From a virus (lineage: Duplodnaviria > Caudoviricetes): a DNA stretch of 64,000 bases. The DNA lies in IMG/VR virus record IMGVR_UViG_3300028591_000174, positions 13,550 through 77,549 of that record; one strand, given 5' to 3'. The notes under the pieces were generated by a model. It was not told the origin of the DNA. It worked only from the letters and a program-made list of their open reading frames with translations, and did not search any database. The translations under genes and the position numbers were made by a program. Shown here in pieces: positions 5,915 to 52,252 of this stretch (position 1 is its first letter; every line of letters begins with the position of its first letter).

Positions 5915-5917
5915 TCC

Positions 5918-6082
5918 TTATTCTCCAAGCCTATCTTTCATTTGACCAAGAATGACGCTCAAAGTTATACTAAGAGAGTCAGAAGCGTCTTTCATACCGC
6001 TTTTAGAAAGTGTTTCTAAAAGTTTATTTGAGTAATCAATTGCATCTTGATATTCTTCCCAACTTACTTTCTGCTCACTCAT
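5918..6082 (-). CDS. Small hypothetical protein (54 aa, MSEQKVSWEEYQDAIDY...), below the ORF-track cutoff
   Basis: Read manually: ATG at 6082 overlaps the RT stop (ATGA coupling); TAA at 5918-5920 lies next to the RBS of the following gene. Confidence 0.65.
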   Translation of the reverse strand: MSEQKVSWEEYQDAIDYSNKLLETLSKSGMKDASDSLSITLSVILGQMKDRLGE

Positions 6083-32013: not shown

Positions 32014-35000
32014 ATGGAAGTTAGTGTAGTAGAACAGGAATTAAGGGTAAAAGCTGAACAGGCAATAAAAGAGATGAATAAGCTCACGGCTTCTGCACAG
32101 GGTTATGCTGCACAGCTTGCAAATATTTCAAATTACCTCGACCAGATTAATAAAAAGTCTTTATCAAACATCAATAAACAGATTAATAATGTTACTCACA
32201 GTAACAACATTGCGAACCAGAACATTGGCACCAATTATGACTTCGGCAATCACAGAAAAGCAGCAAAGAGTAGTACCGGGGCTGTAATGGTTTCTGATAC
32301 TGGCCGAGAGAAGGTATTCCGCGATTATGAACAGGCAATTATTGACGAAACGATTGCAATCAGAAAGGACATTGAAAGACGTACAAAACTTAGAAAACAG
32401 AGAGCTGACGCAGAACTTGTAAGAAATCAGAATACATCCGCCGCCATTGCAAAACGAGAGGATAAATCTTCACAGGCATATTCTGACAGGCAGGATATGT
32501 TAGCACAGGCTCAATTACTTAGAGCTAGAGCGGCTCAGCAAGGTGCATTAAATCGAAACTGGAAATATCAAGCAGGCCGTGGGCTTCAAAATTTAGGTGG
32601 TATAGTCGGTGGAATCGGCACTGGCGGAAGAATGGTTGGGCTTGGGCTTGATACTGCCGGTGCAATGCTTAAGGCTCCTGCTCTTGGTGCTACGGCTGCA
32701 ATTACGAATCTTGCGAAAGGAATATCTGATTTAAGTAAAGAAGCAGTAAAATCTTTTGCAGAAATAGAATCTATTAAAACTCAGTTAGGAGTTGTTTTCT
32801 CAAACCAGACACAAGCTGATTCAGTATTTGGAGATATTTCTCAGTACGCAGTTAAATCTCCATTCGGTGTACAGCAGACTTCTGAACTTGCCGTTCTTTT
32901 GAAACAGTCTGGTGTTTACGCTTCTGACTTGATGAACACTCTCAAAATGATTGGAGATACCGCTGGCGGTAACATGGAGAAGATGAAGCGTATTGCAAAT
33001 AACTACGCTCAGATTGTTTCCATTGGTAAAGCCTCTATGCTTGATATGCGTCAGTTCGCTTATGCAGGTATTCCTATTTTTGAAGCAGTATCAAAAGAGC
33101 TTGGTGTATCTCAGCAGGAACTCCGTAAACTTATATCTGATGGTAAGGTAACTTCTGATATTATTGAAAAGGTATTCAAAGACCTTACAGGTATCAACGG
33201 TATCTTTGAAAACGCAACTGAAAAAGGTGCAAAGACATTAAAAGCTCGTTTACAGAACTTGCAGGATGCTAAACAATTAGCATTTTCAGAAGGTGGCCAG
33301 TTACTGACAAATTTTGGAGCCAAAACAGGAAATGATTCTTTTGCAAATAAGTTTGTCACATGGGCTGAAAATTTCTATCAGTATGTAAAGGATAATATCA
33401 ACACTAAAAACATACAGACAGATGTTGCAATAATTGCAAGAAGAAATGACAGAATAGAAACTCTTAAACAGTTAATAAAAGAAACTGATAAAAAAGAACT
33501 TAAGGAAACTTACAGACGAGAACTTGAACAGGAACTTAAAAAAATTGACTTAGATGCAGAGCGTAATAAATATGCTTTGTCTTATGATTCAAAAATGGGA
33601 AGGCTTGAAAAAGCATACGAAGCTCTCTCTGGTTATTCTGTAAACGACCCTACTTTAAGACTTGCTGCATTAAACCTGCTTTCTGGTCCACAGCAAGGAA
33701 GAAGTTATGCAAGTCTTAATCAATACTCAGAAGAGTATAAAGGGATGTCTCAATCTGAATTGGAGCAATTATCAAGTTTATTCAAAGAGCTTGTAGATGC
33801 CATCAATGCTAACTCAACTTTAACAAATGAAGATATAAAGGCAAATAGAGAAAGGAATCTTATTGCTGAGCAGCAATTGGCATTTGATCAAGAAAACAAA
33901 AGGGCTGACCAGACTAATTCTCTTAACTCTAAGTTCCAAGAACTTTATGAACTCTATAAGGGAAGTGATGAATATCAGAAAAAGGAAGAAGATAAAAAAA
34001 TAAAATCTCTTACCGAAGCAAAAGAAGTTCTTAAACAACTTGTGCCAAAAGCAGATGAGAATGGTCTTGTAGACATGAGTAAATTCTCAATGCTAGAGTT
34101 CCAGAAATATGATGCTCAAGGTGCTTTTGTTCCAGGTGGAAAATTTGATGTAGTCAGAGGTAATAACCCAACTAATAAAGAGGATATGGCCGCACTTAGA
34201 AGTCAGTTTACCTATGCAATGAGTGAGGCTTCTAAATATCTTAATCTTTATGATTCAAGAACTTCAACAGCACTTACTGAACAGTTAAAAGACCTTAATA
34301 GTAATCTTGATGATAATGCATACCTCGACAAATTTAGTGAAACATTTAATGCTGTAAGAGACATAATGAATGTAGCTAAAGTTCCTGGTAATGTAAGAAA
34401 TCAGATTTTAGGTTGGATTACATCGGCCACCATGTCTCACGAAGTAACAGTTGGTGGTGAAAATGCAAATCCAAACGATGTTACAAAAGGTCCTAAGTTT
34501 GTGCCTCTTTGGGAACGTATCCTTTCAGGAGCAACAGGTCTTACAACCAACGGTATGACAGACACATTGTCTACTATGGCTAATTACCGTGATGATATGG
34601 CTGTTCGCAATATGACTTCTGGTGTTCTTACTGCAACTATGAAGTCTATGGGTATTGATAAGGCAATGAGTCTTATGCGTACCAAGAGTGCTGTCCAGCT
34701 TGCAGGTGACAGCGGTAAGACTTTCCAGATTGACTGGCAGGCTACAAAAAAGGCAATTAAAGATTTCTCTACTCAATTGTCTGCTTCTACAGAAGTTATC
34801 ACTGCATATAAGAAAGGTCTTGAAGATGAACTTAATACTTATGAACAGTTGGTTGCCGCCGGATATACACAGGCTGAATCAACAGATTTAGGCTCTCAAA
34901 AATTCGTAAGCACAAAGAAACTTGAGCAACTTGCTTTAGGTAACTCTTCTCAGTTAGTTAATGCATTTGGCGAAGTAATTAAAACTAAGTCTGGAAAGAC

Positions 35001-36744
35001 ATATAAAACTTCTGAAATTACTTTTGATGAAAATGGCAGAATGTTGGATTCTCTTGGTAATGAAATTGCAGAAGAAGTAGAAATTACAGGTAATCTCTTT
35101 GAGTTTATTAAAGGTGAATTGCCACGCTTGAGAAAAGAGTATCACGAAGCAACTGTATCTGAAATTAATAATAAGTTCTTAAATAAGATGCTTTCTCAGG
35201 TAAGCGGAACAAGCATTCTTGCTGGAATGATTTCAAAAGAAGGAATTTCTGATGCAACTAACTTCGTTGCCAACAATCCAGATTATGCAGAAGCGATTCT
35301 TCGTTCATCTCTTGTAGAGAAAAAGGGTAAATTTAGTTCATTAAAAGAACTTTCTATTGAGGATATCCTTTCTAATTATTCATCGCGAGATTTAAGACTC
35401 AAACTAGCAGAGGCTAAAGGAGATAAAGCTGAAGAAGGTAGAATAAAAGATTCTATAAAACTTGTCGAAGATTCACTTAGCGATTTAGGCATTATTATTC
35501 AAACATTCATCGAATCTCCTGTATTCCAAGGGCTGAGAACTGGCATGGCAAATCAAAACCGTGACAATGCAGTTATGTCTGCTTATATTTCAGCCAAACA
35601 ATATGCTTCACACGGCTTAGCTAATCCTGATGAAACTCAGCCAAGATATTACGAAGGTGAACGAGGGAAGCGTAATAGGCTATTCGAATTATTTACTGGA
35701 ACTGAATTAAAATATGACCGCGAAGATTATATTGCTCAGGCTGTAAAAGACCCAGAATTCAGAAAGAAAATTAATGCACAAAGGCGAGAGGCAAGTATTG
35801 AGGACAGACGAGCTGCACTTGCTCGTGGTGATGAGAATTATGGCATAGAACTTCTTCCAGAAGATAATGAAAGTATTCTCAAGATGACTAATGAAGAACT
35901 TGCTAAGATGCTTACCACGAGCGAACAGATTGCAGTTACTTGGGAAAAATCATCTGGAGAATTAGCAGAAGGATTCCAAAATATTGGTAAACAAGGAAGT
36001 GAAATATTTAGAAGTTTTGCTTCTTCTGCAATTACTTCAACATTTGAAACTTGGGGTAAATACCTTGGTGACAGTTCAAAGGCATCTGAAGAGATTGAAA
36101 AGAATCTTGTAAACCTTAGTTCTGGCTTGATGAAGAACATGGGTTCAATGCTTACACAGGCTGGTCTTTCCCTTGCAATTTCAAGTATTGGTGATAAAAA
36201 GAAAGTTATAGCAGGTCTTGCAATTGCTGCCGCAGGTGGCGGATTGTCATTCCTTGGTGGTATGCTTGATCAAGATAACGATGATAACAAAGAGGATGAT
36301 ACATATCAGAAGTTACTCAAAGTAAAACAAGACCTTGCAGACCTTCTCAAACAGGCTCGTGAAGATGCTATTTACTACGAGAACACTGTAAGACATAAGA
36401 AAGCCATTTCTGCCAATGACTATCTTACTAAGAGTGTTCACGATGCTATTATTACACCTCGTGGAGATGTAGTTACTACTGACCCTAAAGATTATCTTAT
36501 TGCTACAAAGACTCCAAGAACTCTTGTGGGTGGCGGTGCTCCTACTATCAACTTTAATGTAATAGATAAGTCTACAGGTATCAAAGTAACTCAGCAGAAA
36601 TCTACTTACAATGAAGAGACAAATTCAATCGACTTTGAAGCAGTTATCGAAAGCAAGGTACAGGAAGTTATCGCTACTTCTAAAGGTGATGAGGCATTTG
36701 CAGCAAGACAGGCAAGATTAAACGGAAGAACAGTAGTCGCATAA
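32014..36744 (+). CDS. Tape measure protein (1576 aa)
   Basis: Long helical ORF with tape-measure motif AVKSPFGVQQ..IGDTAGG..QIVSIGKA..LDMRQFA.AGIPIFE. Confidence 0.92.
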   Translation: MEVSVVEQELRVKAEQAIKEMNKLTASAQGYAAQLANISNYLDQINKKSLSNINKQINNVTHSNNIANQNIGTNYDFGNHRKAAKSSTGAVMVSDTGREKVFRDYEQAIIDETIAIRKDIERRTKLRKQRADAELVRNQNTSAAIAKREDKSSQAYSDRQDMLAQAQLLRARAAQQGALNRNWKYQAGRGLQNLGGIVGGIGTGGRMVGLGLDTAGAMLKAPALGATAAITNLAKGISDLSKEAVKSFAEIESIKTQLGVVFSNQTQADSVFGDISQYAVKSPFGVQQTSELAVLLKQSGVYASDLMNTLKMIGDTAGGNMEKMKRIANNYAQIVSIGKASMLDMRQFAYAGIPIFEAVSKELGVSQQELRKLISDGKVTSDIIEKVFKDLTGINGIFENATEKGAKTLKARLQNLQDAKQLAFSEGGQLLTNFGAKTGNDSFANKFVTWAENFYQYVKDNINTKNIQTDVAIIARRNDRIETLKQLIKETDKKELKETYRRELEQELKKIDLDAERNKYALSYDSKMGRLEKAYEALSGYSVNDPTLRLAALNLLSGPQQGRSYASLNQYSEEYKGMSQSELEQLSSLFKELVDAINANSTLTNEDIKANRERNLIAEQQLAFDQENKRADQTNSLNSKFQELYELYKGSDEYQKKEEDKKIKSLTEAKEVLKQLVPKADENGLVDMSKFSMLEFQKYDAQGAFVPGGKFDVVRGNNPTNKEDMAALRSQFTYAMSEASKYLNLYDSRTSTALTEQLKDLNSNLDDNAYLDKFSETFNAVRDIMNVAKVPGNVRNQILGWITSATMSHEVTVGGENANPNDVTKGPKFVPLWERILSGATGLTTNGMTDTLSTMANYRDDMAVRNMTSGVLTATMKSMGIDKAMSLMRTKSAVQLAGDSGKTFQIDWQATKKAIKDFSTQLSASTEVITAYKKGLEDELNTYEQLVAAGYTQAESTDLGSQKFVSTKKLEQLALGNSSQLVNAFGEVIKTKSGKTYKTSEITFDENGRMLDSLGNEIAEEVEITGNLFEFIKGELPRLRKEYHEATVSEINNKFLNKMLSQVSGTSILAGMISKEGISDATNFVANNPDYAEAILRSSLVEKKGKFSSLKELSIEDILSNYSSRDLRLKLAEAKGDKAEEGRIKDSIKLVEDSLSDLGIIIQTFIESPVFQGLRTGMANQNRDNAVMSAYISAKQYASHGLANPDETQPRYYEGERGKRNRLFELFTGTELKYDREDYIAQAVKDPEFRKKINAQRREASIEDRRAALARGDENYGIELLPEDNESILKMTNEELAKMLTTSEQIAVTWEKSSGELAEGFQNIGKQGSEIFRSFASSAITSTFETWGKYLGDSSKASEEIEKNLVNLSSGLMKNMGSMLTQAGLSLAISSIGDKKKVIAGLAIAAAGGGLSFLGGMLDQDNDDNKEDDTYQKLLKVKQDLADLLKQAREDAIYYENTVRHKKAISANDYLTKSVHDAIITPRGDVVTTDPKDYLIATKTPRTLVGGGAPTINFNVIDKSTGIKVTQQKSTYNEETNSIDFEAVIESKVQEVIATSKGDEAFAARQARLNGRTVVA

Positions 36745-38103: not shown

Positions 38104-38491
38104 TTTATATGTAAATGATTTGATCGGAGTACGTTTCAAAAATCATGGCCGTTCGATTAATGAAGGCTTTGATTGTTATGGACTTGCGATTGAAGTTTCA
38201 AAAAGGCTTGGACATACGCTTCCTGATTTATGGTATCAAAGAGCGTGTCCAGAAACATTCTCAACCCACGTTGATGATGTTTATAACCAGATGAGTTCTA
38301 TGGTTGAAGAAACTGAAGAACAGAATCTTGGAAACCTGATTTTATTTGGTGATGACAAAGGAAGAATGGTTCATATAGGAGTCATTCTTGAAGAAGGTGT
38401 ATTTATTCATGCTGATAATGGTGGTGTAAGGGTAACTGCACTTGATAATTATTACAGAAAAATATGGAAGGTGTACAAATGGCTACAGTAA
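38096..38491 (+). CDS. NlpC/P60 tail-associated peptidase (gpK-like)
   Basis: GFDCYGL catalytic Cys motif and HIGV...G.FIHA. Confidence 0.88.
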   Translation: MADLYVNDLIGVRFKNHGRSINEGFDCYGLAIEVSKRLGHTLPDLWYQRACPETFSTHVDDVYNQMSSMVEETEEQNLGNLILFGDDKGRMVHIGVILEEGVFIHADNGGVRVTALDNYYRKIWKVYKWLQ

Positions 38492-41400
38492 AGTTCTTGA
38501 ATAATATTTTTTCAAATGATGTAAAAACTTTCTCTGTAAACGAGGGTACATCTATTGATGATATTCTTAAACAAAATACAAACGATACTGTTTACGATGA
38601 CGTTCTTGTTGAATGTTATGATCTTGAAACTGGAAAAACATATTATGCTGCTATCTGTGAAGATAGAGAAACATTAAACGCAGTTGTTCAGGTAAACGGA
38701 AAAGATGTAAGCCTTGATTATGAAGTAAAAGTAAATGACATTGTAGAAATTGTTATTACACCTTCTGGTGGTAAAATAGGTGCTCAGATTGCAGGTGCTA
38801 TAGCTGGAATATTCATTGGTGCTATAGCAATTGCTTCTATTGCAGTTACTTGGGGTGCAAGTACTGGTTTAGTTGGTTTCCTTGCTTTTGTTGGTGGTGT
38901 CGGTGGAGGTATTGCCGGTGCTAAAATTGCAGGTGATGCCTGGGATATGAAACATCAAGGAAATGGGTCATCAACTAAAGGTAAGGACTCTGAAAGACTT
39001 CCTGATGTTCGTGGTGCTACAAATCAGGTATTAACTGACCAAGCATTTCCTGCCGTATTTGGCAAACATTTGGCTGCACCATTTATAATTGGTTCTCCGT
39101 ACAACGTTATTACAGGAAATCGTGGACAGGAAAATTATATTCATGTTCTTTATGAGATTGGATATGCTCCATTAAGAATTACAGATATCAAACTTGGTGA
39201 CCAGTATCTTGCTCATAATAAAAGGTGGTCTGGCAATCAGTGCATGAAAAATATCTGGTCCGGCAAACTAGAAGGTATTGATGAAGGAACGAACCATTAT
39301 GATATGGAGTACTTTCAGCAGAATACAAGCATTCCTTTATCATCAAGACCTCAAATTACAGCAAGCCAAATGATTGCTGCAGGTTGGGATGTTCCAGATG
39401 ACGATTCAATTTATACTGTATATTCCTCTTCATATTCAAATCAGAATGGAACAAAAACTGTTCTTGTAACTCCTATTCTTAACAATGGGACTGTTTTATC
39501 ACCTGCTCAGCTTGAAACAGATGCAAATAACATTCTTTCGGACCAATCTGCAACACATGATGTTCTTCTTAACACCTTTACAGGTACTGACTCTATTGGA
39601 CAAGCAGATGAATATGCAGAAGAACTACACGCTGCTCAAGGAAGTTATTATGGATTAAGTGGAGATATTGTAAACACTTGGAAAAATAATGATGTATCAG
39701 TTGAGATATTACAGCAGATTCCAGGTGAAAATGTGAATTACGGAGACGTATATCCACACGCAAGAATTCAAAATGACATCAATGCTGATGTATTGTTTAT
39801 TGCTGACGGTTCTCTTGAAGATATTGATTCTGGTAAAAATATTTCATATAAGGGGGTTGGTCTTAAGGATGGCTTAAGAAATAATCCTATATACTTTACA
39901 GAACAGTATCCTAAATCTGCTACTGTAGAGCTTGATTTTGCACAGGGTCTATATAAATCAAGAAGTGAGACTTCAGATGAAAAGAGTGAAGTAAAGAATT
40001 ATAAGATACCGATGTGGATTGGTCTTCAGTGGCGTATTTACTCTGATGATAATCCTATATGTGACGGAAATACAGCAGGTGATGATGTTCCGTTCCCAAC
40101 ATGGAATCAGGAAACAAAGTCTTACAATCCAGTTACATATAAAGGAAAGACTGGTGTTATCAGAGGCTGGAACTCTTTTGATTCTATCAATAATACTGTA
40201 AATGCAACTGCTTATACAGCAGAAGATCGTTACCTTGATATTGCTGCACATACTGGAAATAACCTCAAGAATGAAAAAACAAGGTCTGGTCAAACTGAAA
40301 CTACAGTTACGATAACTGGAAGTATATCATATTTACCAGCTCCTTATGATACTAATCCTTACAAATTAACAAATCTCACACTTGCCGTTTCTTCTTCTTA
40401 TAGTGATGTTATAAAACTTCAGGCTTATGATAATTCTTCATGGATAACAGTTCTTGAATTACCAATCGGCGGTTCAAGTACATCTGTTCCAAGTACGTCT
40501 GTTCCTAATAACAAATGGCGTATAAAGATTGGAGAGTGGACATCAGGTGAGTTCAGTTTAACAGGTTCAACAAAAACTATCCCAATTTCTGGATATGTAT
40601 ATTCTGCAGATATAAATAATAACTGGCTTAATTCTAAAGCATTTAATCTTCAGTCTTTGGGTGGAGACAATGAAGATACAGATGGTATTAATGAAATCAG
40701 ATGTATAACATCTATTGATTTTGTTGAATGGTCAAGGGCAAATCTTCTTTCTGAAGATGAAAGAGAATCGGAATATGTTGAAGATATTCTTGCAAATAAA
40801 ATGAGATCTTATTTTTATGACGGAACAAACTCAACCAAGTCTATAGAAGTTCGCGTTGTAAGAATTTCTCCATGTTATCTTGATGAAGTTAAATCTACAA
40901 AAGAAAAATCTGCATTTAAATTTAATGATATATTTACCTGGAAAACACTGTCATCAACAATGCTTGATGGCGATGCTCTTATTAACAAGAGTGCTATCAT
41001 TCAGAAAAGACCTTTGTCAGAAGAGTTAATGAGAGGACATTGTATTTTGTCATTAAAGGCAAAAACTGATACTGTAGACCAGTTATCAAACACAATCAGA
41101 AAACTCTCTTGTATCGCAGAGTCTTTTGCACCTTATTATGATAAAGAACAAAAGAAGTGGTTCCCGGAAAATGTTGTAAAGCAGAAGCGTTATATTCGTT
41201 ATGATGCAGGAAACAATGTATGGAATGATATCACAGAACAGGAATATTACCAAGACCGACAGAATAGACAGACTGGAGTTAGGTCCAAATGTATTGCTAA
41301 TGGTAACAACTTTGTTTCTCAGATTATTGATGTAATCAATACAAATGCTCATAAAGATGAGAAAGGACGTATTTTTATTCCAAATGATGATATGGACAAT

Positions 41401-43536
41401 GGACAGTATAAGACTGGCTGTGATGGTACATTGAAATATTGTAATAATAATGTAGCGTCAATATTTATGCTCGCAGGTATTGGACCTCACCTTGGAAAAG
41501 ATGCTTTAGGATATACTCAGAGTCACTTTGATGTAAATGGTATTGGTGATTTTAATATGCTCTCAATGTCAAAATGGCATAGTTGGGCTGAAAGGGTCAC
41601 AGATGGTTCTACTTATGCTTCAGATGGCTATCATTATAATCATAAAGGCGTAAGAATTCATCATAACAAAGGTGATTTAGTTGAGGTATATTTTGCTGCA
41701 AACGCCTATGTTTATAATCAGGAAACACTTGAGTCAATCTTTGCTAATATCTCAATTGCAGGCCGTTCGGTTTATACGAAAGATAATAAAGGCAGAATTA
41801 CAGTTGTTATTGATAAACCAGAAAAATATCCTGTAGCACTTATCAATCAGCAGAATACTCTGAAGTCTTCTTACACAATTTCATATGCAGAGTCACCATC
41901 TGGAATCCAGGTTTCTTTCCCGGATGAAGATGATGGTTATGAAACAAATCAGCTTTATTGTATGGCCGATGGTGAAGACGAGAAAAACCCATTCGGAGCA
42001 ATTGAACCTTATGGATTTAAGTTCGTTACAAACAATATACAGTTATGGTCTTTAGGACGATACATTCTGGCAAATAGAATCCTCAATAAAGAAGTTGTAA
42101 CAAAGCAGCTTGGAATTGAGGGTGCTTCTATTACTCTCGGCGATCTTGTACTTGTACAGGACGATACAATGCTTATAGGCACTGATAATGGTGGTAGAAT
42201 CACTCAATTGATTGAGAATGAACAGGGTATTTACGGTTTTGTAATAGATAATATGTATCACTTTACTGGTGAGACTGAAATCGTTGATGGAGTTGAAAAG
42301 AGTTCTCAGGGCGTTGTTGTAATGCAACCATCTCAGTATAAAGAGTCGAGAATTATCACATTACGATTGATGAAAGATGGTGGAACTGCATATGTAAATG
42401 GAGTTCTTTATACAATGACAAAAGGAATGACAAATACAGTTTTATTTGATATTCCTATCTCAAAAAATGCTGATAATCAAGACGGTTCAGATTATTATAT
42501 CTACAAGCCTGAAGCTGGAAATATGGTTGGCTTTGGAAAAATTGGAAAGGTTACTTCAACTTATAGAGTAATAAAGATTAAGGCTTCAGAAAAACGTACT
42601 TATGATTTTACTCTTATGAAGTATCAAGAGGACTTGTATAACTACGGTGCTCAGTTACCTTCTTTCCAGAACCATATGACAATTCCAGATAGAAGCGGCG
42701 AGAACTCATTCTCATTGTCAAATAATGTAAATCAGAATGATTTGACAAAAAGTCTCAATGAACTCTCAGATCAGGTTCAACAGCAGATAGGAACAATAAC
42801 AAGTTATGAATGCTCTTTGTCTATGTCATCAATTGGCTCTGCAGTTTTAGGCAATGTATTCAAAGATGGTTCAATTGTTGAAGGAACCCTTTATTATAAA
42901 GATTTTTATGGAACTTCTGGTCAGCAACCTACAACAGAAGGTGGCACAGGAACTGTAATTGATGGTATAATTAACATACCTGCGGTTCAAAACGCTGATA
43001 AACATATTGTAAATATCTACTCAGATGCTCAGTATGAAAACATTGTTTGTTCAAGTTTTGTTTCGTATGGTGCTACTGGAAGTGGTTCTTCTTCTTACTG
43101 GCTTATATGTGATGCAAGTTCTGTTAATAAAGATGTAAACGGAAACTTTAATCCAAGTTCTATTAATCTTGTCGGAATGACACAGAGTGGAACTTCTGCT
43201 CCAACTACATATTCAGGAAGAATTGGAATTGCAGTTGATACAGGCAGCGGATATGGAAATGAAACTACTTATGATGATTATTCAAAGACGTTTACAATTC
43301 CTGCTAACACTAAGAAGATAAGATGCCGTCTTTATCTTGCCGGTGGAACTTCTGTTAAACTCGATGAAGAGATTGTAACAGTAACAAGTGACGGCGGATA
43401 TCAGGATTACAAGTTTGCAGTTGGGGCCTTCGACCTTGATGATACTGCACTCAGAAATCTTGATTGGCAGGAAACACCACCACCTACAACAGAACAGGCA
43501 CCTTGCTTATATATGGCTACTAAGTGGATAAACTAG
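38479..43536 (+). CDS. Tail tip / central fibre host-specificity protein (gpI/gpJ-like fusion)
   Basis: ~1685 aa; N-terminal ubiquitin-like segment plus hydrophobic GA-rich stretch; P.VFGKH...P, GD.V.V and Y.L.L.KY motifs. Track start is 38464. Confidence 0.8.
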   Translation: MATVKFLNNIFSNDVKTFSVNEGTSIDDILKQNTNDTVYDDVLVECYDLETGKTYYAAICEDRETLNAVVQVNGKDVSLDYEVKVNDIVEIVITPSGGKIGAQIAGAIAGIFIGAIAIASIAVTWGASTGLVGFLAFVGGVGGGIAGAKIAGDAWDMKHQGNGSSTKGKDSERLPDVRGATNQVLTDQAFPAVFGKHLAAPFIIGSPYNVITGNRGQENYIHVLYEIGYAPLRITDIKLGDQYLAHNKRWSGNQCMKNIWSGKLEGIDEGTNHYDMEYFQQNTSIPLSSRPQITASQMIAAGWDVPDDDSIYTVYSSSYSNQNGTKTVLVTPILNNGTVLSPAQLETDANNILSDQSATHDVLLNTFTGTDSIGQADEYAEELHAAQGSYYGLSGDIVNTWKNNDVSVEILQQIPGENVNYGDVYPHARIQNDINADVLFIADGSLEDIDSGKNISYKGVGLKDGLRNNPIYFTEQYPKSATVELDFAQGLYKSRSETSDEKSEVKNYKIPMWIGLQWRIYSDDNPICDGNTAGDDVPFPTWNQETKSYNPVTYKGKTGVIRGWNSFDSINNTVNATAYTAEDRYLDIAAHTGNNLKNEKTRSGQTETTVTITGSISYLPAPYDTNPYKLTNLTLAVSSSYSDVIKLQAYDNSSWITVLELPIGGSSTSVPSTSVPNNKWRIKIGEWTSGEFSLTGSTKTIPISGYVYSADINNNWLNSKAFNLQSLGGDNEDTDGINEIRCITSIDFVEWSRANLLSEDERESEYVEDILANKMRSYFYDGTNSTKSIEVRVVRISPCYLDEVKSTKEKSAFKFNDIFTWKTLSSTMLDGDALINKSAIIQKRPLSEELMRGHCILSLKAKTDTVDQLSNTIRKLSCIAESFAPYYDKEQKKWFPENVVKQKRYIRYDAGNNVWNDITEQEYYQDRQNRQTGVRSKCIANGNNFVSQIIDVINTNAHKDEKGRIFIPNDDMDNGQYKTGCDGTLKYCNNNVASIFMLAGIGPHLGKDALGYTQSHFDVNGIGDFNMLSMSKWHSWAERVTDGSTYASDGYHYNHKGVRIHHNKGDLVEVYFAANAYVYNQETLESIFANISIAGRSVYTKDNKGRITVVIDKPEKYPVALINQQNTLKSSYTISYAESPSGIQVSFPDEDDGYETNQLYCMADGEDEKNPFGAIEPYGFKFVTNNIQLWSLGRYILANRILNKEVVTKQLGIEGASITLGDLVLVQDDTMLIGTDNGGRITQLIENEQGIYGFVIDNMYHFTGETEIVDGVEKSSQGVVVMQPSQYKESRIITLRLMKDGGTAYVNGVLYTMTKGMTNTVLFDIPISKNADNQDGSDYYIYKPEAGNMVGFGKIGKVTSTYRVIKIKASEKRTYDFTLMKYQEDLYNYGAQLPSFQNHMTIPDRSGENSFSLSNNVNQNDLTKSLNELSDQVQQQIGTITSYECSLSMSSIGSAVLGNVFKDGSIVEGTLYYKDFYGTSGQQPTTEGGTGTVIDGIINIPAVQNADKHIVNIYSDAQYENIVCSSFVSYGATGSGSSSYWLICDASSVNKDVNGNFNPSSINLVGMTQSGTSAPTTYSGRIGIAVDTGSGYGNETTYDDYSKTFTIPANTKKIRCRLYLAGGTSVKLDEEIVTVTSDGGYQDYKFAVGAFDLDDTALRNLDWQETPPPTTEQAPCLYMATKWIN

Positions 43537-43545: not shown

Positions 43546-46500
43546 ATGGCTTTACCAGAAGGTTATGCTATTTCAGCACTTACAGGAAAAAAAGGAGCAG
43601 ACGGAACATCTGCTAAGTTTATAGAAATAGAAGCACCAAACGGACTTGTTTTCAAAAACGGAAGTCCTAATAGTTTGACACTTAATGCCATTGCTATAGG
43701 CTTTACTCCAAGTTCTTATAAGTGGTATAAAGACGGTACTGTAATCAGCGGTGCAACTTCACAGACTTACAATGCAACTACAGCAGGAGTATATAAAGTT
43801 GTCTGTGGAGACTATTCAGATATCACAACAGTAATTGCAGTGTCTGACGGACAAGATGGTACATCACCTTATTCCTGCTCTGTAAGTAACGAAAACTTTA
43901 CAGTAGCAACTGGCACAGATTTAAAACCTCTCTCTGCGACAACTTACAGCGTAAAGTTTCAAGCATATAAAGGAAGCACACAACTTTCTCCTATTGCTCC
44001 GTCAGCAGCTATTGCAAGTGGTAAGTTTAAAGTATCTACTCCAAATGCTTCTGGATTCACTGTTGCACAAAGCACAGCAGGAACATTGACATTTAAGACT
44101 GCAACTGGCACTGCTATATCTGCAAACCTTACTGTATCTGTTACTGTAACTTATGATAACGGTTCGACAGAAACAAAAGTAATTACTATCTCTGCAAGTA
44201 AAACTGGAGCAAAAGGTGAAGATGCTTCTCAGATAGGAGAGAACTTACTTCACGATTCAAAACTTTTTGGTTCTGTATATGGTTCTTCATATCCATATTA
44301 TAAATACATTGATAATGGTGCTCATACAGCAAACGCTTTCAATGGATTTACACAGACTTACTGTAACAATTCTAGTGGAACTTCAACAAAAGATTTTTTA
44401 GCTTGGAAAAACATCAAAGGTTTTACTCTTGGTGATAAATATACATTAAGTTTTTGGGCTAAAGGAAGTGGAAAATTTTATACTTATTGGTATGGTGATT
44501 CTGGTTACGTTCAGACTAAGAGAATTGCATCTTCTGACGGTCAGGCAGCAGGCAATTTTGGTGATGGCTCAACTACATTTACTCTTACATCAGAATGGAA
44601 GCAGTATTGGGTTACTTGGCAACTAAATACAACAGGAAATAACACAGTATCTAAGATTATTCTTTTTAGAGCATACGCAGATGCACAAGTTTATATTGCA
44701 GGCCCTAAATTTGAGAAAGGAGAAACAGCAACTGCTTGGGTTCCTCATGTTGATGAATATAAAGGAGAAACTGGCAATACAGGAACTAAAACATTTTTCT
44801 CTGATTACGCAAGAACATGGACTAACACAAACTGGAATACTTATAAGACAGCAGGTTATGCAACTACATGGAATAACAGTACCGTTGAAGGAATGCGTGT
44901 TGGCGATATATTAGTCATAACTGCAACCTTATCTGAGCAGGGAAATATTATTGGTACCGTCTATACTCAGATAACTTCAGTGCCAAGTTCAAAAGTAGAT
45001 GGATATTACAAGATTGGTTGTACTACTCTTTACGGTATGGTAGGACAACGTGGTCAAACAGGTGCAACAGGTACTCGTGGAACTTTAACTTTTACAGGTA
45101 CAGAAATCTATAATATTAGAGCAACTGCTGTTGTATATACACTTACAACTGCGAGTACAGGGATTACTAGCACTAATATGAATATTCTTGTAGGTGACAG
45201 ATACATTAACTCTCTGACTGGCGATGTATGGAAGTGTACTACGGCAGGCACTGCTTCAACTGCTAAATGGACTTATGAGGGTAGACAGGCTAAGGATAGT
45301 GATAGTTCTAACCAATTCAGATTCTTTGGAGAAGGAACTAAAACAAAATATAACACTGGCGGAACAAATATATCACAGACAGAAGTTACTGGTGAGGGTC
45401 CTTTTGGCGGTAATACTTCCCTATTGAAGATTACTCGTCCTGCTAATGCTGCCTCAAATGGCAGAGTAACACCATATTCAAAAACCATAAAACTTGAAGC
45501 TGGTGTAAGTTATCGTTATGCCTGCTACGCAAAAAAAACAAACGATGGCTTTATTAATTATTTTGGTTGTAGAGGTTGGGAACAGGTTTCTGAAACAGTA
45601 AAAAACAGTCAGATATTAGCATTAAATGGTAGCGAAATAAACAGTGGATATTTTGTAAGTTCTAAAAACTTCGGAACAGTAGGTAGATGGTATCTTGTAA
45701 TCGGATATGTAACCGCAAACGGTGTAACTACAGCACCTGCAAATGATGCAGGTGTTTATGATATGGTAACTAAACAGAGGGTTGCAAACTGTATTAACTA
45801 CCAGTTTAAAAATATTACTGAGTTTACTCACAATGGAACTTTGATTGAGTATACTGAAAGCTCTTCAACTCCAACTGTTGAGAATACTACATATATCTAT
45901 GATATTCGCTTTGATAAAATGGATGGAACTCAGCCTACCTTAAATGAACTTTTGAATCTTGACAGTGAAGCAAAGGGAAAAGGAACGTGGGCTAGTGGTA
46001 CAAATTATATTATAGGCGATATTGTTTTTTATAGTACAAATGGGTGTTCATATATCTGTAAATCAAGTCATACGTCTTCTAGTTCTATTGTACCAACAAA
46101 CACAACTTATTGGGATAAAATTGCAGATAAAGGTGAAAAAGGTGATAGAGGTTTCTCATCACGCACAATTGCATTTAGAGTAAACTATTCGGCTTTTTCT
46201 ACAGCAAATGACGGAGAAGTTTATGTATGTGGTTATAATGCAAATGGTGCAGAAGCAGATACATATGGCTATGTAATTATAAACGGAACTACATATTATG
46301 CTAAGGGAATGTTGAATAGTAACTGTGCTATGAATGGTTATATGGCTATTCAGAAAAGCGGTGCAACAAGTTCTGGATCTCCAGCAACGCCAGTTTATGT
46401 TTTTGAAGATGGCTCAAACACTTGGTATCAAGTTGCAAATGGTTTAACTACAGTTGTTAAAAGTGCAATTTCTTCAAAAGCAGATTGGATTGTATTGGCT

Positions 46501-48744
46501 AAAGTCCACTCTCAAACAGGAGAAGGGAAAGTTTCTCTTGAACCAATGACTCCTTGTTTACTTTCAGATATAAACAGTGTTATTGAAATGAAGTATGAAG
46601 GAATAGTCGCAGCAGTCACAAATTATACAAGTGCACAAATTACTCCATACAAAATCACAGGAAGTAACGGTTCGTTTAGTAAAACAGCATTAACTGCAAG
46701 ATATGTTGAGCGTGGTGCATTGGTTCTTAATACAAATGCAGTTACTCCAACATCAAGTACTGCCCAGGCTAGAATGATGTTGTTTGACGGAACAACTTGG
46801 ACCGAAATTAGTTCTAGTGATGCTCGTTATAATGACGCTATATTGTTGTGTGCCGGTGCACTTCCTTCTCTTGCTGGATATTATTATACACTCGGATTGG
46901 CAACTCCAAACATTTGCGGAACTTATATTGATACACTCACAACTAACAGAGCGTTTATCAATGAAGCGATGATTAACCTTATCCGTGCTTATGATATCAA
47001 CTTCAAGAACTCTGTTTCAAGTTATAAGGATTCTGGATATGTCGCAGGAGATCTTGCTATATCTATGGGTAAGAATCCTAAAAACACTTCTGATACAGAA
47101 AATAACTTTATAATACAATCGTACAAAGGTGATGTAGTTAAATCTGGAAATTCTGTTCCAATTTGGAAAAAAGAGTTCTTTACAAAAAAAACTGACAATG
47201 GATTAATAGATTTATTTATTAATGGAAAATTAAATTTAGCAGGTGATTTAGAAATAAGTTCTCCTTCGTTGTACGTTGGAGTTGAAGCAGAACCAGTCTG
47301 TAAATGTTCTGGGTCTGGCACAGCTGTATCTAACTACAACTGTGCTCAAGTGTTTTATAATGACAAAATATACTTATTTCAAAGTTCAACTTCCAGCACT
47401 GTAATGGTGTCTGTTTGTAATTACAAAGGAAGTAATACACCAAGTTTTACACAACTTGCAGAAATTAGCAGCAAAGGTCTTGTTTATGATGCAACAGTTT
47501 ACAAAAACAATATCTATGTCTCTTTTAGTACAGGTGTATATAGATTTAATGTTTCTAATAACTCATTTACAACAATAACAACTACTTATAAACCTGTTAT
47601 AATGAACATTGTAAATAATTTATTAAATCTAACCACTGACAATAATATATTTGCTTTCTATAATGGTTCTTCTGTTATTACAAAAACATCAAATGGCAAT
47701 TGTTTGTGGTTATGTAATTTTACCCAAGATTTATTAGTTGCTTGTAATGGAAGTTTGTCACCTTCTGGCACTGCATATGCAACAAATAGCCTATCATTTT
47801 ATAATCCTGATTTTACAGAACTTGGAAATCAACAAATTACTGGTAAAACAGTTACGAAAATTGATGGAACAACAACGACTATTTCATCAGCCTGTGGGCT
47901 ATTTGCTTATAATGGCGTTTTAATAACTTGTGCATTAAATTTAGGAATCGTAATAAGTTATGACTGTGGACAAACGTGGAAGCAGGTTTTCTCACGGACA
48001 ATACTTTCATTTAAGGGCTATGCGACTCAAAATATTATTATATTACATAATGATGCCGAAGTAATTTATAGTTTAGATAATGGTGTAAATTGGAATGACT
48101 TTAATTTACGTTATAACAGTACATACAGAATGGGTAAAGCATTCTTAGCACAAACAACCTTATATAAAGATATATTAGTGCCAGTTGGCTTTGACAATAG
48201 ATTGAGTTTTTGTAGAATTAGACAAAGAAATATAGTAGAACAAACGGCTATATCAATTATTGCCAGCAGTATAAAAGATATTAACAGACCATTTGGGTTA
48301 TCAATGTATGATGCTTCTATAGAGCTAATAAAGTTTGATAAAACTTATAATGTTGGAGACATTATTTATAATGGTGCTAACACTATTGGTAATTTTTACA
48401 AATGCATACAATCAAGTAAAGCAGATAAATTATTTGACCCTGCTTATTGGCAAAACGATATTGGTGACAGTGGTTATATAGTCTTTTCGAACGGTTTAAA
48501 GATACAGTGGATTAGGACTACTCACACTAATTCTACAAAAAGCCTTGCATTTGATTTATCATTCAGTAACAAAAATTATTTTGTTTTTTGTCAAAGCGAA
48601 CGAACTGACAATGGATACCCAAATACGTTTGTAGGTGGTGTTTATAATAAACAAAATGATAACAGAACATTTACTTATGCAACTTCATATAATTCGCAAA
48701 GCGAAAGTGTTACTAATGACATTTTTTTTGCTATAGGATACTAA
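43546..48744 (+). CDS. Long tail fibre / receptor-binding protein with variable C-terminal tip
   Basis: 1732 aa, Thr/Ser-rich; collagen-like GxxGxxG stretches; CBM4/9-like GENLL..S domain; two CBM5/12-like W...Y..GD.V...Y.C motifs; C-terminal SGY..FSNGLKIQW...AIGY tip (gp53-like). Confidence 0.9.
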   Translation: MALPEGYAISALTGKKGADGTSAKFIEIEAPNGLVFKNGSPNSLTLNAIAIGFTPSSYKWYKDGTVISGATSQTYNATTAGVYKVVCGDYSDITTVIAVSDGQDGTSPYSCSVSNENFTVATGTDLKPLSATTYSVKFQAYKGSTQLSPIAPSAAIASGKFKVSTPNASGFTVAQSTAGTLTFKTATGTAISANLTVSVTVTYDNGSTETKVITISASKTGAKGEDASQIGENLLHDSKLFGSVYGSSYPYYKYIDNGAHTANAFNGFTQTYCNNSSGTSTKDFLAWKNIKGFTLGDKYTLSFWAKGSGKFYTYWYGDSGYVQTKRIASSDGQAAGNFGDGSTTFTLTSEWKQYWVTWQLNTTGNNTVSKIILFRAYADAQVYIAGPKFEKGETATAWVPHVDEYKGETGNTGTKTFFSDYARTWTNTNWNTYKTAGYATTWNNSTVEGMRVGDILVITATLSEQGNIIGTVYTQITSVPSSKVDGYYKIGCTTLYGMVGQRGQTGATGTRGTLTFTGTEIYNIRATAVVYTLTTASTGITSTNMNILVGDRYINSLTGDVWKCTTAGTASTAKWTYEGRQAKDSDSSNQFRFFGEGTKTKYNTGGTNISQTEVTGEGPFGGNTSLLKITRPANAASNGRVTPYSKTIKLEAGVSYRYACYAKKTNDGFINYFGCRGWEQVSETVKNSQILALNGSEINSGYFVSSKNFGTVGRWYLVIGYVTANGVTTAPANDAGVYDMVTKQRVANCINYQFKNITEFTHNGTLIEYTESSSTPTVENTTYIYDIRFDKMDGTQPTLNELLNLDSEAKGKGTWASGTNYIIGDIVFYSTNGCSYICKSSHTSSSSIVPTNTTYWDKIADKGEKGDRGFSSRTIAFRVNYSAFSTANDGEVYVCGYNANGAEADTYGYVIINGTTYYAKGMLNSNCAMNGYMAIQKSGATSSGSPATPVYVFEDGSNTWYQVANGLTTVVKSAISSKADWIVLAKVHSQTGEGKVSLEPMTPCLLSDINSVIEMKYEGIVAAVTNYTSAQITPYKITGSNGSFSKTALTARYVERGALVLNTNAVTPTSSTAQARMMLFDGTTWTEISSSDARYNDAILLCAGALPSLAGYYYTLGLATPNICGTYIDTLTTNRAFINEAMINLIRAYDINFKNSVSSYKDSGYVAGDLAISMGKNPKNTSDTENNFIIQSYKGDVVKSGNSVPIWKKEFFTKKTDNGLIDLFINGKLNLAGDLEISSPSLYVGVEAEPVCKCSGSGTAVSNYNCAQVFYNDKIYLFQSSTSSTVMVSVCNYKGSNTPSFTQLAEISSKGLVYDATVYKNNIYVSFSTGVYRFNVSNNSFTTITTTYKPVIMNIVNNLLNLTTDNNIFAFYNGSSVITKTSNGNCLWLCNFTQDLLVACNGSLSPSGTAYATNSLSFYNPDFTELGNQQITGKTVTKIDGTTTTISSACGLFAYNGVLITCALNLGIVISYDCGQTWKQVFSRTILSFKGYATQNIIILHNDAEVIYSLDNGVNWNDFNLRYNSTYRMGKAFLAQTTLYKDILVPVGFDNRLSFCRIRQRNIVEQTAISIIASSIKDINRPFGLSMYDASIELIKFDKTYNVGDIIYNGANTIGNFYKCIQSSKADKLFDPAYWQNDIGDSGYIVFSNGLKIQWIRTTHTNSTKSLAFDLSFSNKNYFVFCQSERTDNGYPNTFVGGVYNKQNDNRTFTYATSYNSQSESVTNDIFFAIGY

Positions 48745-48747
48745 ACC

Positions 48748-48963
48748 AACGGTTTACATATACAATGGGGACAGAAGCCTGGATATACAAAACATATTAC
48801 TTTTCCTATTGCATTCTCTAGTGGCTGTATGTACTTTAACTTTATAGCATATCGTACTTCAGCTACAGAGAATGGCTGGCATTATTACAATAATCTCACA
48901 AGGACAGATGTTTATGTAATGCAGAATGATGAAACTGTATTATGGATTGCTATAGGTTATTAA
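48748..48963 (+). other. Silent tip cassette B (NGLHIQWGQKPG...LWIAIGY*)
   Basis: No own start codon; begins at the crossover site. Confidence 0.88.
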
Positions 48964-49205
48964 TAGCCAATTGCAAAAAAACTATACGAACCTCCATTTG
49001 TAATTGCTTTAAACTGATTTGTATTATTTCCACTCAGTCTTGCTCCAACTTCCGATTTTGACATTGTACCAGCAGAATTATCATAATAGCCAAATATAAG
49101 ACAGGAGTCTGGACTTGTAAAATTAAGTGGTAAATATAAATCAGTTTTTACACCTCCACTAACAAAGCCATCAGCATATTTTATCCATTGTATCTTTAAA
49201 CCGTT
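48960..49205 (-). other. Silent tip cassette C (NGLKIQWIKYADG...SFFAIGY*)
   Basis: Read manually on the minus strand; stop overlaps the cassette B stop. Confidence 0.88.
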
Positions 49206-49232
49206 CGATAACTTATAATAATTATTAAGTCG

Positions 49233-49241
49233 TGCTATAAT
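49233..49241 (+). promoter_or_regulatory. Extended -10 promoter (TGnTATAAT) for the fibre chaperone gene, inside the invertible region
   Basis: TGCTATAAT followed by GGAGG RBS (49252-49256) and ATG at 49262. Confidence 0.6.
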
Positions 49242-49261
49242 CTATTTAGGTGGAGGTATGT

Positions 49262-49642
49262 ATGTATTTCGGAAAAATCAAAAATACTGATGATGAATGG
49301 GGCTTTGATGTTTTTATTTCTAACTTTGAATCTTATGTAACGGTCGATGATTCAGAACATCTAAGCATTGTAAATCAAGCAAACAGTGAAGGTAAATTAA
49401 TCAAAGGAGATTCTGACGGAAATCCTATTCTGGTAAATCCACCAGAACCGACTGATTATGAAAAAGCACAGAGCCGAATATCTGAACTTGAACAATTTCT
49501 TACTGAAACAGACTGGTATGCAATCAGATTTGCAGATACAGGCGAAGAAATCCCTGTTGAAATAAAAAATAACAGACAGGAAGCAAGAGACGAAATATCA
49601 AGATTACGAACAGAGTATCCAGAGCCTAATCAAAACAACTGA
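49262..49642 (+). CDS. Tail fibre assembly chaperone-like protein
   Basis: G.P.L..PP, L.ETDWY and R.EAR..I motifs typical of Tfa/XkdW-like proteins; embedded among the cassettes. Track start is 49250. Confidence 0.75.
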   Translation: MYFGKIKNTDDEWGFDVFISNFESYVTVDDSEHLSIVNQANSEGKLIKGDSDGNPILVNPPEPTDYEKAQSRISELEQFLTETDWYAIRFADTGEEIPVEIKNNRQEARDEISRLRTEYPEPNQNN

Positions 49643-49857
49643 ACGGTTTGCGTATACAATGGGGAAAAGATTCTGGTTCGAACAGAACAGTTAATTTTTC
49701 ATTAAGTTTTACTCAAACGCCTATAATTGTCTGCGTTCCACACGCAGGAGAAAGCTATTCACCTGGATACTTTTCTTTCGGATATAACATCACTAATTCA
49801 AGTTTTACTGCTTACAAAGCTGGTGCAAGTATAGACTGGATTGCTATAGGATATTAG
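49642..49857 (+). other. Silent tip cassette D (NGLRIQWGKDSG...DWIAIGY*)
   Basis: Track ORF 49648-49857; begins at the crossover site. Confidence 0.9.
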
Positions 49858-50108
49858 TAACCAATTGCAATCCAAGACATTTGTTTTTTTGACAAACCAG
49901 AGACTCCACAATAAAAACCGCTAACAGATATACTGTCAATAAAAGTCCAAGAAGATAAGTAATTTACATATAATGTATTTGATGATGTGTCAGATTCAAT
50001 TACTGCTGTTGATACAAATGGAGGAGTAGTAAAATTCAATGCAAAGGAAACAGATTTTCTTCCTGCACTTTTATCAAGTTGCTTTCCCCATTGTATCTTT
50101 AAACCGTT
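49854..50108 (-). other. Silent tip cassette E (NGLKIQWGKQLDK...SWIAIGY*)
   Basis: Track ORF 49854-50039 extended to the crossover site. Confidence 0.9.
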
Positions 50109-50112
50109 CAGT

Positions 50113-50325
50113 TTAATAACCTATTAAAATAACATCTATTTTGTTTGAACCATAAGAACATCTTATATTAATATGTCTTGCATCTTGATGTTCTACCGCA
50201 ACGTGATAACCGTTTTGAGTGTGAGATTCTGATATTATATAAGAACTAACACTTGAAAAAGACAATGGAAGTTCTATGCTAGTGCCATTACTTAAATTAT
50301 AAAGCCACTGTATTTTTAAACCGTT
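50113..50325 (-). other. Silent tip cassette F (NGLKIQWLYNLSN...VILIGY*)
   Basis: Read manually on the minus strand. Confidence 0.85.
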
Positions 50326-50373
50326 CCTTAATATTTTAATATCTTTATACTATTATTAGAGGTATTAAAAAAT

Positions 50374-50973
50374 ATGAATTATGCTTACATCAGAGTTTCA
50401 ACAGACAAACAAACAGTACAGAATCAAAGGCTTGCAATTAAAGAATATGCAAAGTATCACAGAATCAGAAACCTTATATGGTTTTCTGAAACAATTAGCG
50501 GAACTAAAAAACCAGATAAAAGAAAATTAGGAGAACTTCTAAACACAGTCAAAAGTGGAGATGTTATTGTTATTACAGAGTTATCAAGACTTGGCAGGTC
50601 TATGATGATGATTTTAGACGTACTCCAACTGTTGCTTGAAAAAGGTGTAAAGGTTATTGCTATAAAAGAAGGTTACGAACTCGGAGATAATATCCAGTCT
50701 AAAGTTCTTGCGTTTGCTTTTGGATTGTCAGCAGAACTTGAAAGAAGTCTGTTATCGGAAAGAACAAAACTTGGTCTTGAACGTGCAAGAAAACAGGGGA
50801 AGCATATCGGCAGAAGAAAAGGACAGAAACCGTCTCACTATAAACTTACAGGAAAGTGTGCTTATATAAAACGAGAACGATTAAGTGGCAGAAGTAAGTT
50901 ATCTCTTGCAAAAGAATTAAACGTTACTTGGATTACGCTTGATAAGTTTATGAAAAGGTATAAAATTAATTAA
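50374..50973 (+). CDS. Serine recombinase / DNA invertase
   Basis: YAYIRVSTDKQ (catalytic Ser), E..SG, GDVIVITELSRLGRS, ER..LSERTK.GLERARKQGK.IGR, C-terminal HTH. Confidence 0.95.
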   Translation: MNYAYIRVSTDKQTVQNQRLAIKEYAKYHRIRNLIWFSETISGTKKPDKRKLGELLNTVKSGDVIVITELSRLGRSMMMILDVLQLLLEKGVKVIAIKEGYELGDNIQSKVLAFAFGLSAELERSLLSERTKLGLERARKQGKHIGRRKGQKPSHYKLTGKCAYIKRERLSGRSKLSLAKELNVTWITLDKFMKRYKIN

Positions 50974-50975
50974 AG

Positions 50976-51944
50976 ATGCTATCTATCGGAGTAACTGTCT
51001 GTGATACAGACTACCATTTATTAGATTCTCTTCTGGAACAAATTGAAGAACGTATTCTGATTCCTCACGAAGTTATCATCATAGATAACCGTGAGGAGTT
51101 TCTTAATGTCGCTACAAACTGGAAGGCTGATTTTGCTTACGGATATAACGCAACGCAGTTTTCTGCACGTTCTAAAATAATCGAGTTATCGAAAGGTAAT
51201 TATATCTGGTTCATAGACGGTGATGACGAGGTGCATACTGTCGATTGCTTTAATTACACCGAAGATATAATTGTATTCAGTTATTCAAGTTATCCTGTCG
51301 GTGATGTCCATATTGAAGAACAGATTGTTACCGAAGATATTTTCTCTTTTCAAACAGGCTGTCTGATTAAACCTGTACTCTGGAACAAGTTCATTAAAAA
51401 ATCATTGTTCAAAGAAAAATTTCCAGAAACTAAAATCATCACCAATGAAGATACTCTGTGGCTCTATAACGCTCTGAAAAATGCTCGTTCTATTAGATGC
51501 GTAGACAAGATAATTTATCAGCACAATCTTGGGCTGTCCAATAAACAGGAAGGTGTTACCTTAGAAAACATCAAGACATTAGTTACAGGTTATAATGAAA
51601 TGCGTGCAATTCTCAAAGGCTTGGTTGATGATGATTTTTACAGATTATCTAATGAAGCAACGAACGCACACGTTATGTCTTTCATTCCAAGATGTGATGA
51701 TGTACAGGGTGCTACAAGATTCTTTCTTGACTTGATTCCAAAAGACGAGTTCAAAACTGCTTTGAGTAAATCCGTATATCCGTGGTGTAAGAACAAAGAT
51801 GTATACAAGACAATCATCAAAACCGTTGCGAACAGATACGGTGAACTTTTTCCTTATCCAACTTCAACCTGCAAAGTTACGTATGCAGACGGTAGGGTTG
51901 AAGATTATACTTTTATCCAGACTATTGAGTTCGTAACCAATTAA
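50976..51944 (+). CDS. Glycosyltransferase family 2 (GT-A fold)
   Basis: EVIIIDN, AR...IE.SKGNYIWFIDGDD (DxD), LWNKFIKK and ED motifs. Confidence 0.85.
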   Translation: MLSIGVTVCDTDYHLLDSLLEQIEERILIPHEVIIIDNREEFLNVATNWKADFAYGYNATQFSARSKIIELSKGNYIWFIDGDDEVHTVDCFNYTEDIIVFSYSSYPVGDVHIEEQIVTEDIFSFQTGCLIKPVLWNKFIKKSLFKEKFPETKIITNEDTLWLYNALKNARSIRCVDKIIYQHNLGLSNKQEGVTLENIKTLVTGYNEMRAILKGLVDDDFYRLSNEATNAHVMSFIPRCDDVQGATRFFLDLIPKDEFKTALSKSVYPWCKNKDVYKTIIKTVANRYGELFPYPTSTCKVTYADGRVEDYTFIQTIEFVTN

Positions 51945-52015: not shown

Positions 52016-52252
52016 ATGCACTCAATAGTTAGAACAATCAACGCTTATTTTAAAATTGCAACCAGAGCAGATGTAAACGATCTGCTCTCTAAAATCATTC
52101 TGTCAGAACGTCAGCAGAGAATCTTTGAGATGTTCTATCTGAAACGACAGAATATAGGATTTATTGCAGACACGCTTGGATTCTCTGAACGAGTAATCAG
52201 CGAAGAACTGGATTTAATCAGACGCAAGATTTCAGCAGTTATTCTGCAATAA
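52016..52252 (+). CDS. Small HTH protein (LuxR/sigma region-4-like)
   Basis: LSERQQRIFEMFY...IGFIADTLGFSERVISEEL. Confidence 0.75.
   Translation: MHSIVRTINAYFKIATRADVNDLLSKIILSERQQRIFEMFYLKRQNIGFIADTLGFSERVISEELDLIRRKISAVILQ

Follow-up and report, generated by a model that had tools for sequence, protein, structure and literature searches.

A predicted six-tip tail-fibre switch of the multiple-inversion type, served by an Mpi-family serine invertase, in a probable Treponema phage

The locus analyzed here occupies part of a 64,000-nucleotide stretch (hereafter the window) of the IMG/VR virus record IMGVR_UViG_3300028591_000174 (positions 13,550 to 77,549 of that record). The window is tailed-phage DNA, carries terminase, portal, major head and tail genes and has a GC content of 36.8%. 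The locus consists of a tail-fibre gene, five silent cassettes downstream of it, a tail-fibre assembly (chaperone) gene lying among the cassettes, a small serine DNA invertase gene at the far end, and six copies of a short putative crossover site. The fibre gene, an open reading frame (ORF) of 1732 amino acids (aa) at 43546-48744 on the + strand within the phage structural module, is composed of a constant part (43546..48489, +) and a 3′-end, cassette A (48490..48744, +; 84 aa plus stop), that encodes the currently expressed tip. Behind it follow the silent cassettes B (48748..48963, +; 71 aa) and C (48960..49205, −; 81 aa), the chaperone gene (49262..49642, +; 126 aa, the same size as in public gene calls), the silent cassettes D (49642..49857, +; 71 aa), E (49854..50108, −; 84 aa) and F (50113..50325, −; 70 aa), and the invertase gene (50374..50973, +; 199 aa), which starts 49 base pairs (bp) past the last site.

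Each cassette begins with a match to the 21-bp pattern AACGGTTTnnnnATACArTGG. Site 1 (48490-48510, +) lies inside the fibre gene, and the others head cassettes B (site 2, 48748-48768, +), C (site 3, 49185-49205, −), D (site 4, 49642-49662, +), E (site 5, 50088-50108, −) and F (site 6, 50305-50325, −), so that a preliminary description of this DNA, made from the letters alone, was right in placing six copies here, three on each strand. The window holds 9 copies of the 8-mer AACGGTTT, where 1.9 would be expected, and 0 of 100 shuffles reached this count; the remaining three copies (24660, 51827 and 57454) are without the 21-bp extension. In the whole 77.5-kb virus record the 21-bp pattern is present exactly six times (3 forward, 3 reverse), and a control pattern 0 times.

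All six cassettes are open in frame from the site, start with NGL[KHR]IQW and finish with (A/L)IGY-stop, and the codons of the site, N-G-L-x-I-Q-W, are read in the identical phase at all six copies. The five silent cassettes have no start codon and are immediately preceded by a stop or by non-coding DNA. Packing is tight: the fibre stop is separated from site 2 by 3 nucleotides (nt) and the stop of cassette F from site 5 by 4 nt, and the convergent cassettes overlap in their stops, in TTAA at 48960-48963 (B/C) and in TTAG at 49854-49857 (D/E). The start-less cassettes running to an IGY-stop, the single site within the fibre gene and the shared stops had all been noticed in the preliminary description, and each of these points stands.

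The cassettes correspond to a recognizable domain. Five of the six match PF21882 (Gp53-like_C) from profile position 3 or 4 to 84 of 84, and cassettes A (1.2e-08, 35.7 bits), B (1.1e-09, 39.1 bits), D (2.1e-06, 28.6 bits) and E (1.7e-07, 32.1 bits) do so above the Pfam gathering threshold of 24.9 bits; cassette C scores 19.3 bits, and cassette F aligns with the other cassettes at both ends. Since five cassettes span the near-complete profile, the crossover site would lie at the exact start of a complete C-terminal tip domain, and one cassette is, as far as profile matches can tell, one whole Gp53-like_C fibre-tip domain. Identity to cassette A is 28-33% among the cassettes, chiefly at both ends. 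An AlphaFold2 model of cassette A, built on 107 cassettes, reached a pLDDT of 82, and its top fold matches, which are weak (E 0.03-0.07, TM 0.5), are the R2 pyocin fibre foot (6ct8) and AP22 gp53 (4mtm). The sole relative of the fibre protein in the protein database is 1919 aa long and carries Laminin_G_3 and Gp53-like_C domains.

Related loci were collected by a pattern scan of IMG/VR and metagenomes plus an invertase search, and the codon choice of 114 cassette heads, gathered by the protein motif alone, was compared with the codon usage of neighbouring genes. The Asn codon is AAC in 114/114 heads (32% in neighbouring genes), the Gly codon GGT in 109/114 (45%) and the Ile codon ATA in 102/114 (26%), a CTN codon for Leu is used in 0/114 (59%), and the base preceding the cassette, which is non-coding in silent copies, is G in 96/114, figures that are inflated in that many loci were gathered with the DNA pattern itself. 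The six copies of the window show equal codon fixation by themselves, and all six fit the family consensus. Therefore, the codon choice of the site is constrained at the DNA level, far beyond what the protein requires. This bears on the notion that the repeats are simply the conserved N-terminus of small, separately expressed tail proteins and take no part in recombination, for which it can be said that NGLxIQW and IGY are conserved features of Gp53-like_C. Fixed synonymous positions and a fixed non-coding −1 base do not agree with that notion, nor do silent cassettes that have no start codon at the head, two cassettes that begin 3-4 nt after the preceding stop, convergent pairs that share stops, and an order and orientation that differ among relatives exactly at the sites; we consider it highly improbable.

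Within the site, strong conservation is found on the cassette side only, and the opposite side is weakly A/T-biased. The same bias was all that the second half displayed when the sequence was tested as a Din-type 26-bp site, with two imperfect inverted 12-bp half-sites around a 2-bp core. The gix and hix half-sites end in AAACC beside the 2-bp core, and one half-site here, GGTTTaaaGATACA, whose complement has AAACC on its inner side, resembles them. By this analogy, the crossover dinucleotide might be guessed to be the AC within GA-AC-GGTTT.

The enzyme gene that follows encodes a full-length small serine invertase (PF00239 Resolvase, 3e-35; phrog_125 DNA invertase, 3e-49), in which the YIRVST serine and the RLGRS and ERT motifs align with those of Gin. 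A serine recombinase directly after the array had thus been correctly foreseen; its assignment to the Gin/Cin/Min type, however, has to be given up. The best family is NF009949, that of the master DNA invertase Mpi (4.5e-70, 235.5 bits, positions 1-197 of 203), whereas the nearest solved structure, Gin 4m6f, matches at 3.5e-13 through the catalytic domain alone, and membership in the Din family (Gin, Cin, Hin, Pin and Min) was rejected on this comparison. The score lies under the NCBI equivalog cut-off of 272 bits for NF009949, and by its profile matches the enzyme is an Mpi-family relative, not an equivalog. Also at odds with the Gin type, a search of three Treponema genomes with relatives of the invertase gave no Fis (NF001659) above cut-off, the sole matches there being the helix-turn-helix (HTH) segments of sigma-54-type activators of ~470 aa. 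Therefore, a Fis-bound enhancer cannot be the accessory element in such hosts. Close relatives of the invertase (63-80% identity; L021-L023, L025, L029-L030, L044 and others), mostly of Treponema lineage, also occur with no NGLxIQW cassettes nearby, in some cases with a single AACGGTTT shortly ahead of the gene; this enzyme clade evidently also serves other invertible targets.

The chaperone gene (phrog_4912, 1e-08; phrog_188, 4e-07), which had been overlooked in the preliminary description, occupies the middle invertible segment, flanked by site 3 (−) and site 4 (+), and its TGA stop overlaps the latter. This segment is the only one with two non-cassette ends, and so the chaperone gene should flip too. 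A gene that has to function either way round would need a promoter of its own, and an extended −10 box, TGcTATAAT (49233..49241, +), followed by GGAGG, is a candidate marked out by conservation: TGnTATAaT and then GGAGG are retained ahead of the chaperone gene in more than 12 diverged relatives, including one in which the gene is inverted with respect to the invertase (L148) and one in which it stands opposite to the fibre gene (L225). Therefore, the chaperone gene probably carries its own extended −10 promoter.

Taken together, we propose that the locus is very probably a multiple-inversion, shufflon-type host-range switch of the tail fibre, with six tips, in a phage most likely of Treponema. 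It has at least three sites in both orientations, one of them in the fibre gene, in-frame start-less 3′-ends and an adjacent serine recombinase, which is the architecture of the Min type, and a serine-invertase multi-inversion mechanism is supported by this anatomy, by the domain identity of the cassettes, by the DNA-level conservation of the sites and by the related loci described below. In this model, the initial seven codons of the tip would also serve as the strong half of a 21-22-bp recombination site, and five complete start-less tips would be stored downstream behind copies of the site, two on the fibre strand and three opposite. Upon pairing of any two oppositely oriented sites, the invertase would invert the DNA between them. 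As the site is always in one codon phase, every inversion that uses site 1 would fuse a new tip in frame to the constant part of the fibre. With U for the non-cassette end of a site and H for the cassette head, the array may be written as fibre-U / H-A-U / H-B/C-H / U-chaperone-U / H-D/E-H / U-F-H / U-invertase, and the chaperone would be made in either orientation from its own extended −10 promoter.

A breadth-first enumeration of all inversions between opposite sites yielded 320 arrangements, which equals the combinatorial limit, and all six tips can be expressed among them. Tip A requires 0 inversions, tips C, E and F require 1, and tips B and D require 2, in agreement with the earlier claim that B and D are reached by two successive inversions; the chaperone gene points one way in half of the 320 and the other way in the rest. 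Equal counting for a 12-site array gives an upper bound of ~10^8 arrangements. The phage population may thereby display up to six receptor-binding tips, which would differ in the receptor that they bind.

Arrays of 2, 3, 4, 5-7 and 12 copies of the site were found in IMG/VR contigs, metagenomes and Treponema genomes, and the related arrays carry a homologous chaperone gene and a 61-80% identical invertase. At the multi-site loci, 110 of the 121 sites head an open cassette of 68-100 aa, most of which end in IGY or IGF. The largest array, L013 (IMGVR_UViG_2623620477_000002, 3283-7236), is in a prophage of an isolate genome and possesses 12 sites (6+, 6−) with 12 intact cassettes, a chaperone homologue in mid-array and, at the same end as in the window, a similar 199-aa invertase gene (72% nucleotide identity), all joined to an unrelated fibre shaft. 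Tip A of the window shares 90% identity with the L013 cassette that lies nearest the invertase, on the opposite strand, and tip B resembles the second cassette of L013, as judged from translations inspected by eye.

For a test of shuffling, the multi-site loci were cut at the sites and their segments were clustered at ≥88% identity and written as signed strings. L013, L137, L148 and L202 contain common segments in differing order and orientation, always bounded by sites. In two loci of one metagenome (L132 and L153), three segments stand in equal order with the middle one inverted, and L005 and L139 have in common a 99% identical fibre and a 99.5% identical cassette, which is fused to the fibre in one locus and stands at the distal site in the other. 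Two contigs of the assembly JAEEGL01 (L137:6856-8507 and L148:1-480) are 100% identical up to and through the site and unrelated beyond it, at two junctions. An assembler confronted with alternative joints would be expected to leave such a pattern, and the two contigs have the appearance of such joints within a single population.

Cassettes also appear to travel between phages. The B/C segment of the window (48732-49206) is ~95% identical to L202:11-485, the adjoining chaperone gene being 70% identical, and L002 and L004 share 99% identical flanks with differing cassettes between the same sites; both comparisons suggest lateral cassette exchange. Such replacement between diverged phages is probably homologous, and it could accordingly be argued that RecA or a phage recombinase exchanges the tips, or that gene conversion does, at their short conserved ends, and that the invertase has another purpose. 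However, the repeats extend over only ~21 bp, codon choice is frozen at the DNA level, the breakpoints between contigs fall exactly at the site, and many of the multi-site arrays adjoin an invertase gene homologous to that of the window (by BLAST). Furthermore, arrays keep as many as three consecutive direct repeats without deletion, which argues for an inversion-selective enzyme. We therefore regard homologous exchange as a very unlikely source of the tip variation, and prefer site-specific inversion by the adjacent invertase.

In the proposed switch, deletion between directly oriented sites would be suppressed. One possibility, which we put forward tentatively and with rather more doubt than confidence, is that the Mpi-family enzyme is strictly inversion-selective among up to 12 sites with one strong half each, in Fis-less hosts, through a selectivity unlike the Fis-enhancer invertasome of Hin and Gin. 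If this is true, the enzyme family would constitute a compact portable multi-site shuffling module, with 6-12 tips of ~80 residues and one common chaperone with its own promoter.

Several observations, besides the inflation of the codon figures, weigh against the proposed switch. A clear dyad symmetry of the hix/gix kind was sought in the site, and none was convincing; cassette F has no Pfam match and cassette C falls under the PF21882 cut-off; a generic sigma-70 promoter/terminator scan yielded sites no more often than shuffled sequence did and passed over the extended −10 box; and the permutations come from related mosaic phages, with segments 87-100% identical, and not from one clone. Nor was an alternative arrangement of this phage itself encountered. 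The three contigs that contain its exact invertase and chaperone, found by exact look-up and including ENA ERZ27256846 and Logan SRR8436538, show equal gene spacing, and fibre residues 1400-1732 retrieved from the protein database only the protein itself and one 49% relative, with no alternative-tip version of the fibre; the constant fibre end had no relative among species-representative genomes. Isomeric arrangements thus exist in related phages and in contigs from a single metagenome, and only the reference layout is seen for this phage, in which we infer inversion from its relatives.

A uniform layout would also be displayed by a frozen relic, that is, an array built by past inversions in which the enzyme, the sites or a host factor is now inactive and tip A alone is displayed. 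Arrays do decay. The locus with the nearest fibre relative (L225; Logan SRR32599957, 10524-11560) has two sites, a chaperone gene on the opposite strand with its TGcTATAAT/GGAGG leader, a decayed site remnant (CCGTTC only) upstream of that gene and no invertase within 5 kb; it is probably a reduced array that has frozen, from which it follows that arrays can freeze. In the window, by contrast, the six sites fit the family consensus, the invertase is full-length with its catalytic motifs, and five silent start-less cassettes remain open over 70-84 codons, which is unlikely to last without selection through expression. Moreover, a consensus assembly reports the majority isomer only, so that the uniform layout of the three contigs is weak evidence against switching. 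We therefore judge a frozen relic improbable, and hold that the invertase would still act at these sites.

The phage host is most likely Treponema. Relatives of the invertase at 61-80% identity are found overwhelmingly in Treponema genomes and metagenome-assembled genomes (MAGs) of rumen, gut and mouth, with the isolates T. socranskii ATCC 35536 and Treponema sp. Marseille-Q4130 among them, and when species-representative genomes were searched for the major head protein, the one relative, 65% identical, belonged to a Treponema MAG; the host is assigned from these two lines. A megablast search of 43546-51000 against the INPHARED phages gave no match. Around the switch, a very large ORF (38464-43536, 1690 aa) lies directly upstream of the fibre gene and is preceded by a 1576-aa ORF (32014-36744), probably the tape measure. 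On the other side, a 322-aa gene (50976-51944) begins 3 nt past the invertase stop and resembles family-2 glycosyltransferases weakly at its N-terminus (PF00535, 3.9e-05), without a match in PHROG, and a 78-aa protein encoded at 52016-52252 gives weak matches to sigma-70 region 4 and extracytoplasmic-function (ECF)-like HTH (E ~0.004-0.007).

Treponema phages are almost unstudied, and the module described here would provide them with a built-in display of many receptor-binding tips, which matters for host range and for the dynamics between phages and their hosts in rumen, gut and mouth. With arrays that span 2 to 12 sites in nature and an Mpi-type invertase in Fis-less bacteria, the family makes the preference of inversion over deletion testable, and a minimal tip of ~80 residues with a fixed seven-codon joint would illustrate cleanly how cassettes are exchanged in nature at the level of domains.

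The closest analogue is Min of the plasmid-prophage p15B (E. coli 15T−), a system with six mix sites, together with the two-state systems Gin of Mu, Cin of P1 and Pin; in these, a constant 5′ part of the fibre gene is joined to alternative 3′ parts by an adjacent small serine invertase. Min is a serine-invertase shufflon that generates variable tail fibres and, like the present locus, has several sites in both orientations with overlapping invertible segments (PMC6109161). A tail-fibre-assembly gene within the invertible region is a further feature in common with Min, Gin, Cin and Pin. However, the enzyme belongs to the Mpi family here and to the Din family there; each cassette here is a minimal domain of 70-84 aa, whereas the variable part of Min is long and has its own assembly gene; one invertible chaperone gene is common to all tips here; the sites are one-sided, with one half-site conserved, and reach 12 in relatives; and Fis is absent from the three Treponema genomes tested.

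The probable repeat consensus of Mpi, ARACGTWCGT, resembles AAACCGTTCG. Mpi of Bacteroides fragilis, the master DNA invertase, inverts 13 regions (PMC4747536) and thus likewise represents one serine invertase acting on many inverted repeats in a host without Fis, as in the three Treponema genomes, but it flips promoters at dispersed chromosomal loci, whereas the phage-borne enzyme here would swap coding cassettes in one compact array. The Rin shufflon of Bifidobacterium prophages and the R64 shufflon (Rci) also switch a receptor-binding C-terminus among multiple cassettes through short asymmetric sites at the cassette heads (PMC6109161). They employ tyrosine recombinases, whereas the enzyme adjacent to the present array is a serine recombinase, and an R64-type (Rci) shufflon was rejected for this reason. 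In a systematic survey, tail-fibre genes, tail-fibre-assembly genes and Mpi-family invertases were enriched at predicted programmed inversions (PMC9881135).

At the level of the tip itself, the cassettes are comparable to AP22 gp53 (4mtm), on which PF21882 is built, and to the tips of R-type pyocins (6ct8, 6cl6), which are the top fold matches, with the difference that AP22 and the pyocins have a single fixed tip. R-pyocin fibres also need a tail-fibre-assembly chaperone. A literature search on Treponema phage invertases and tail-fibre switches found nothing relevant, and for this Treponema-phage family itself we found no published account; the locus may be regarded as a variant of the host-range switch that has been known since the phages Mu and P1 and the plasmid p15B.

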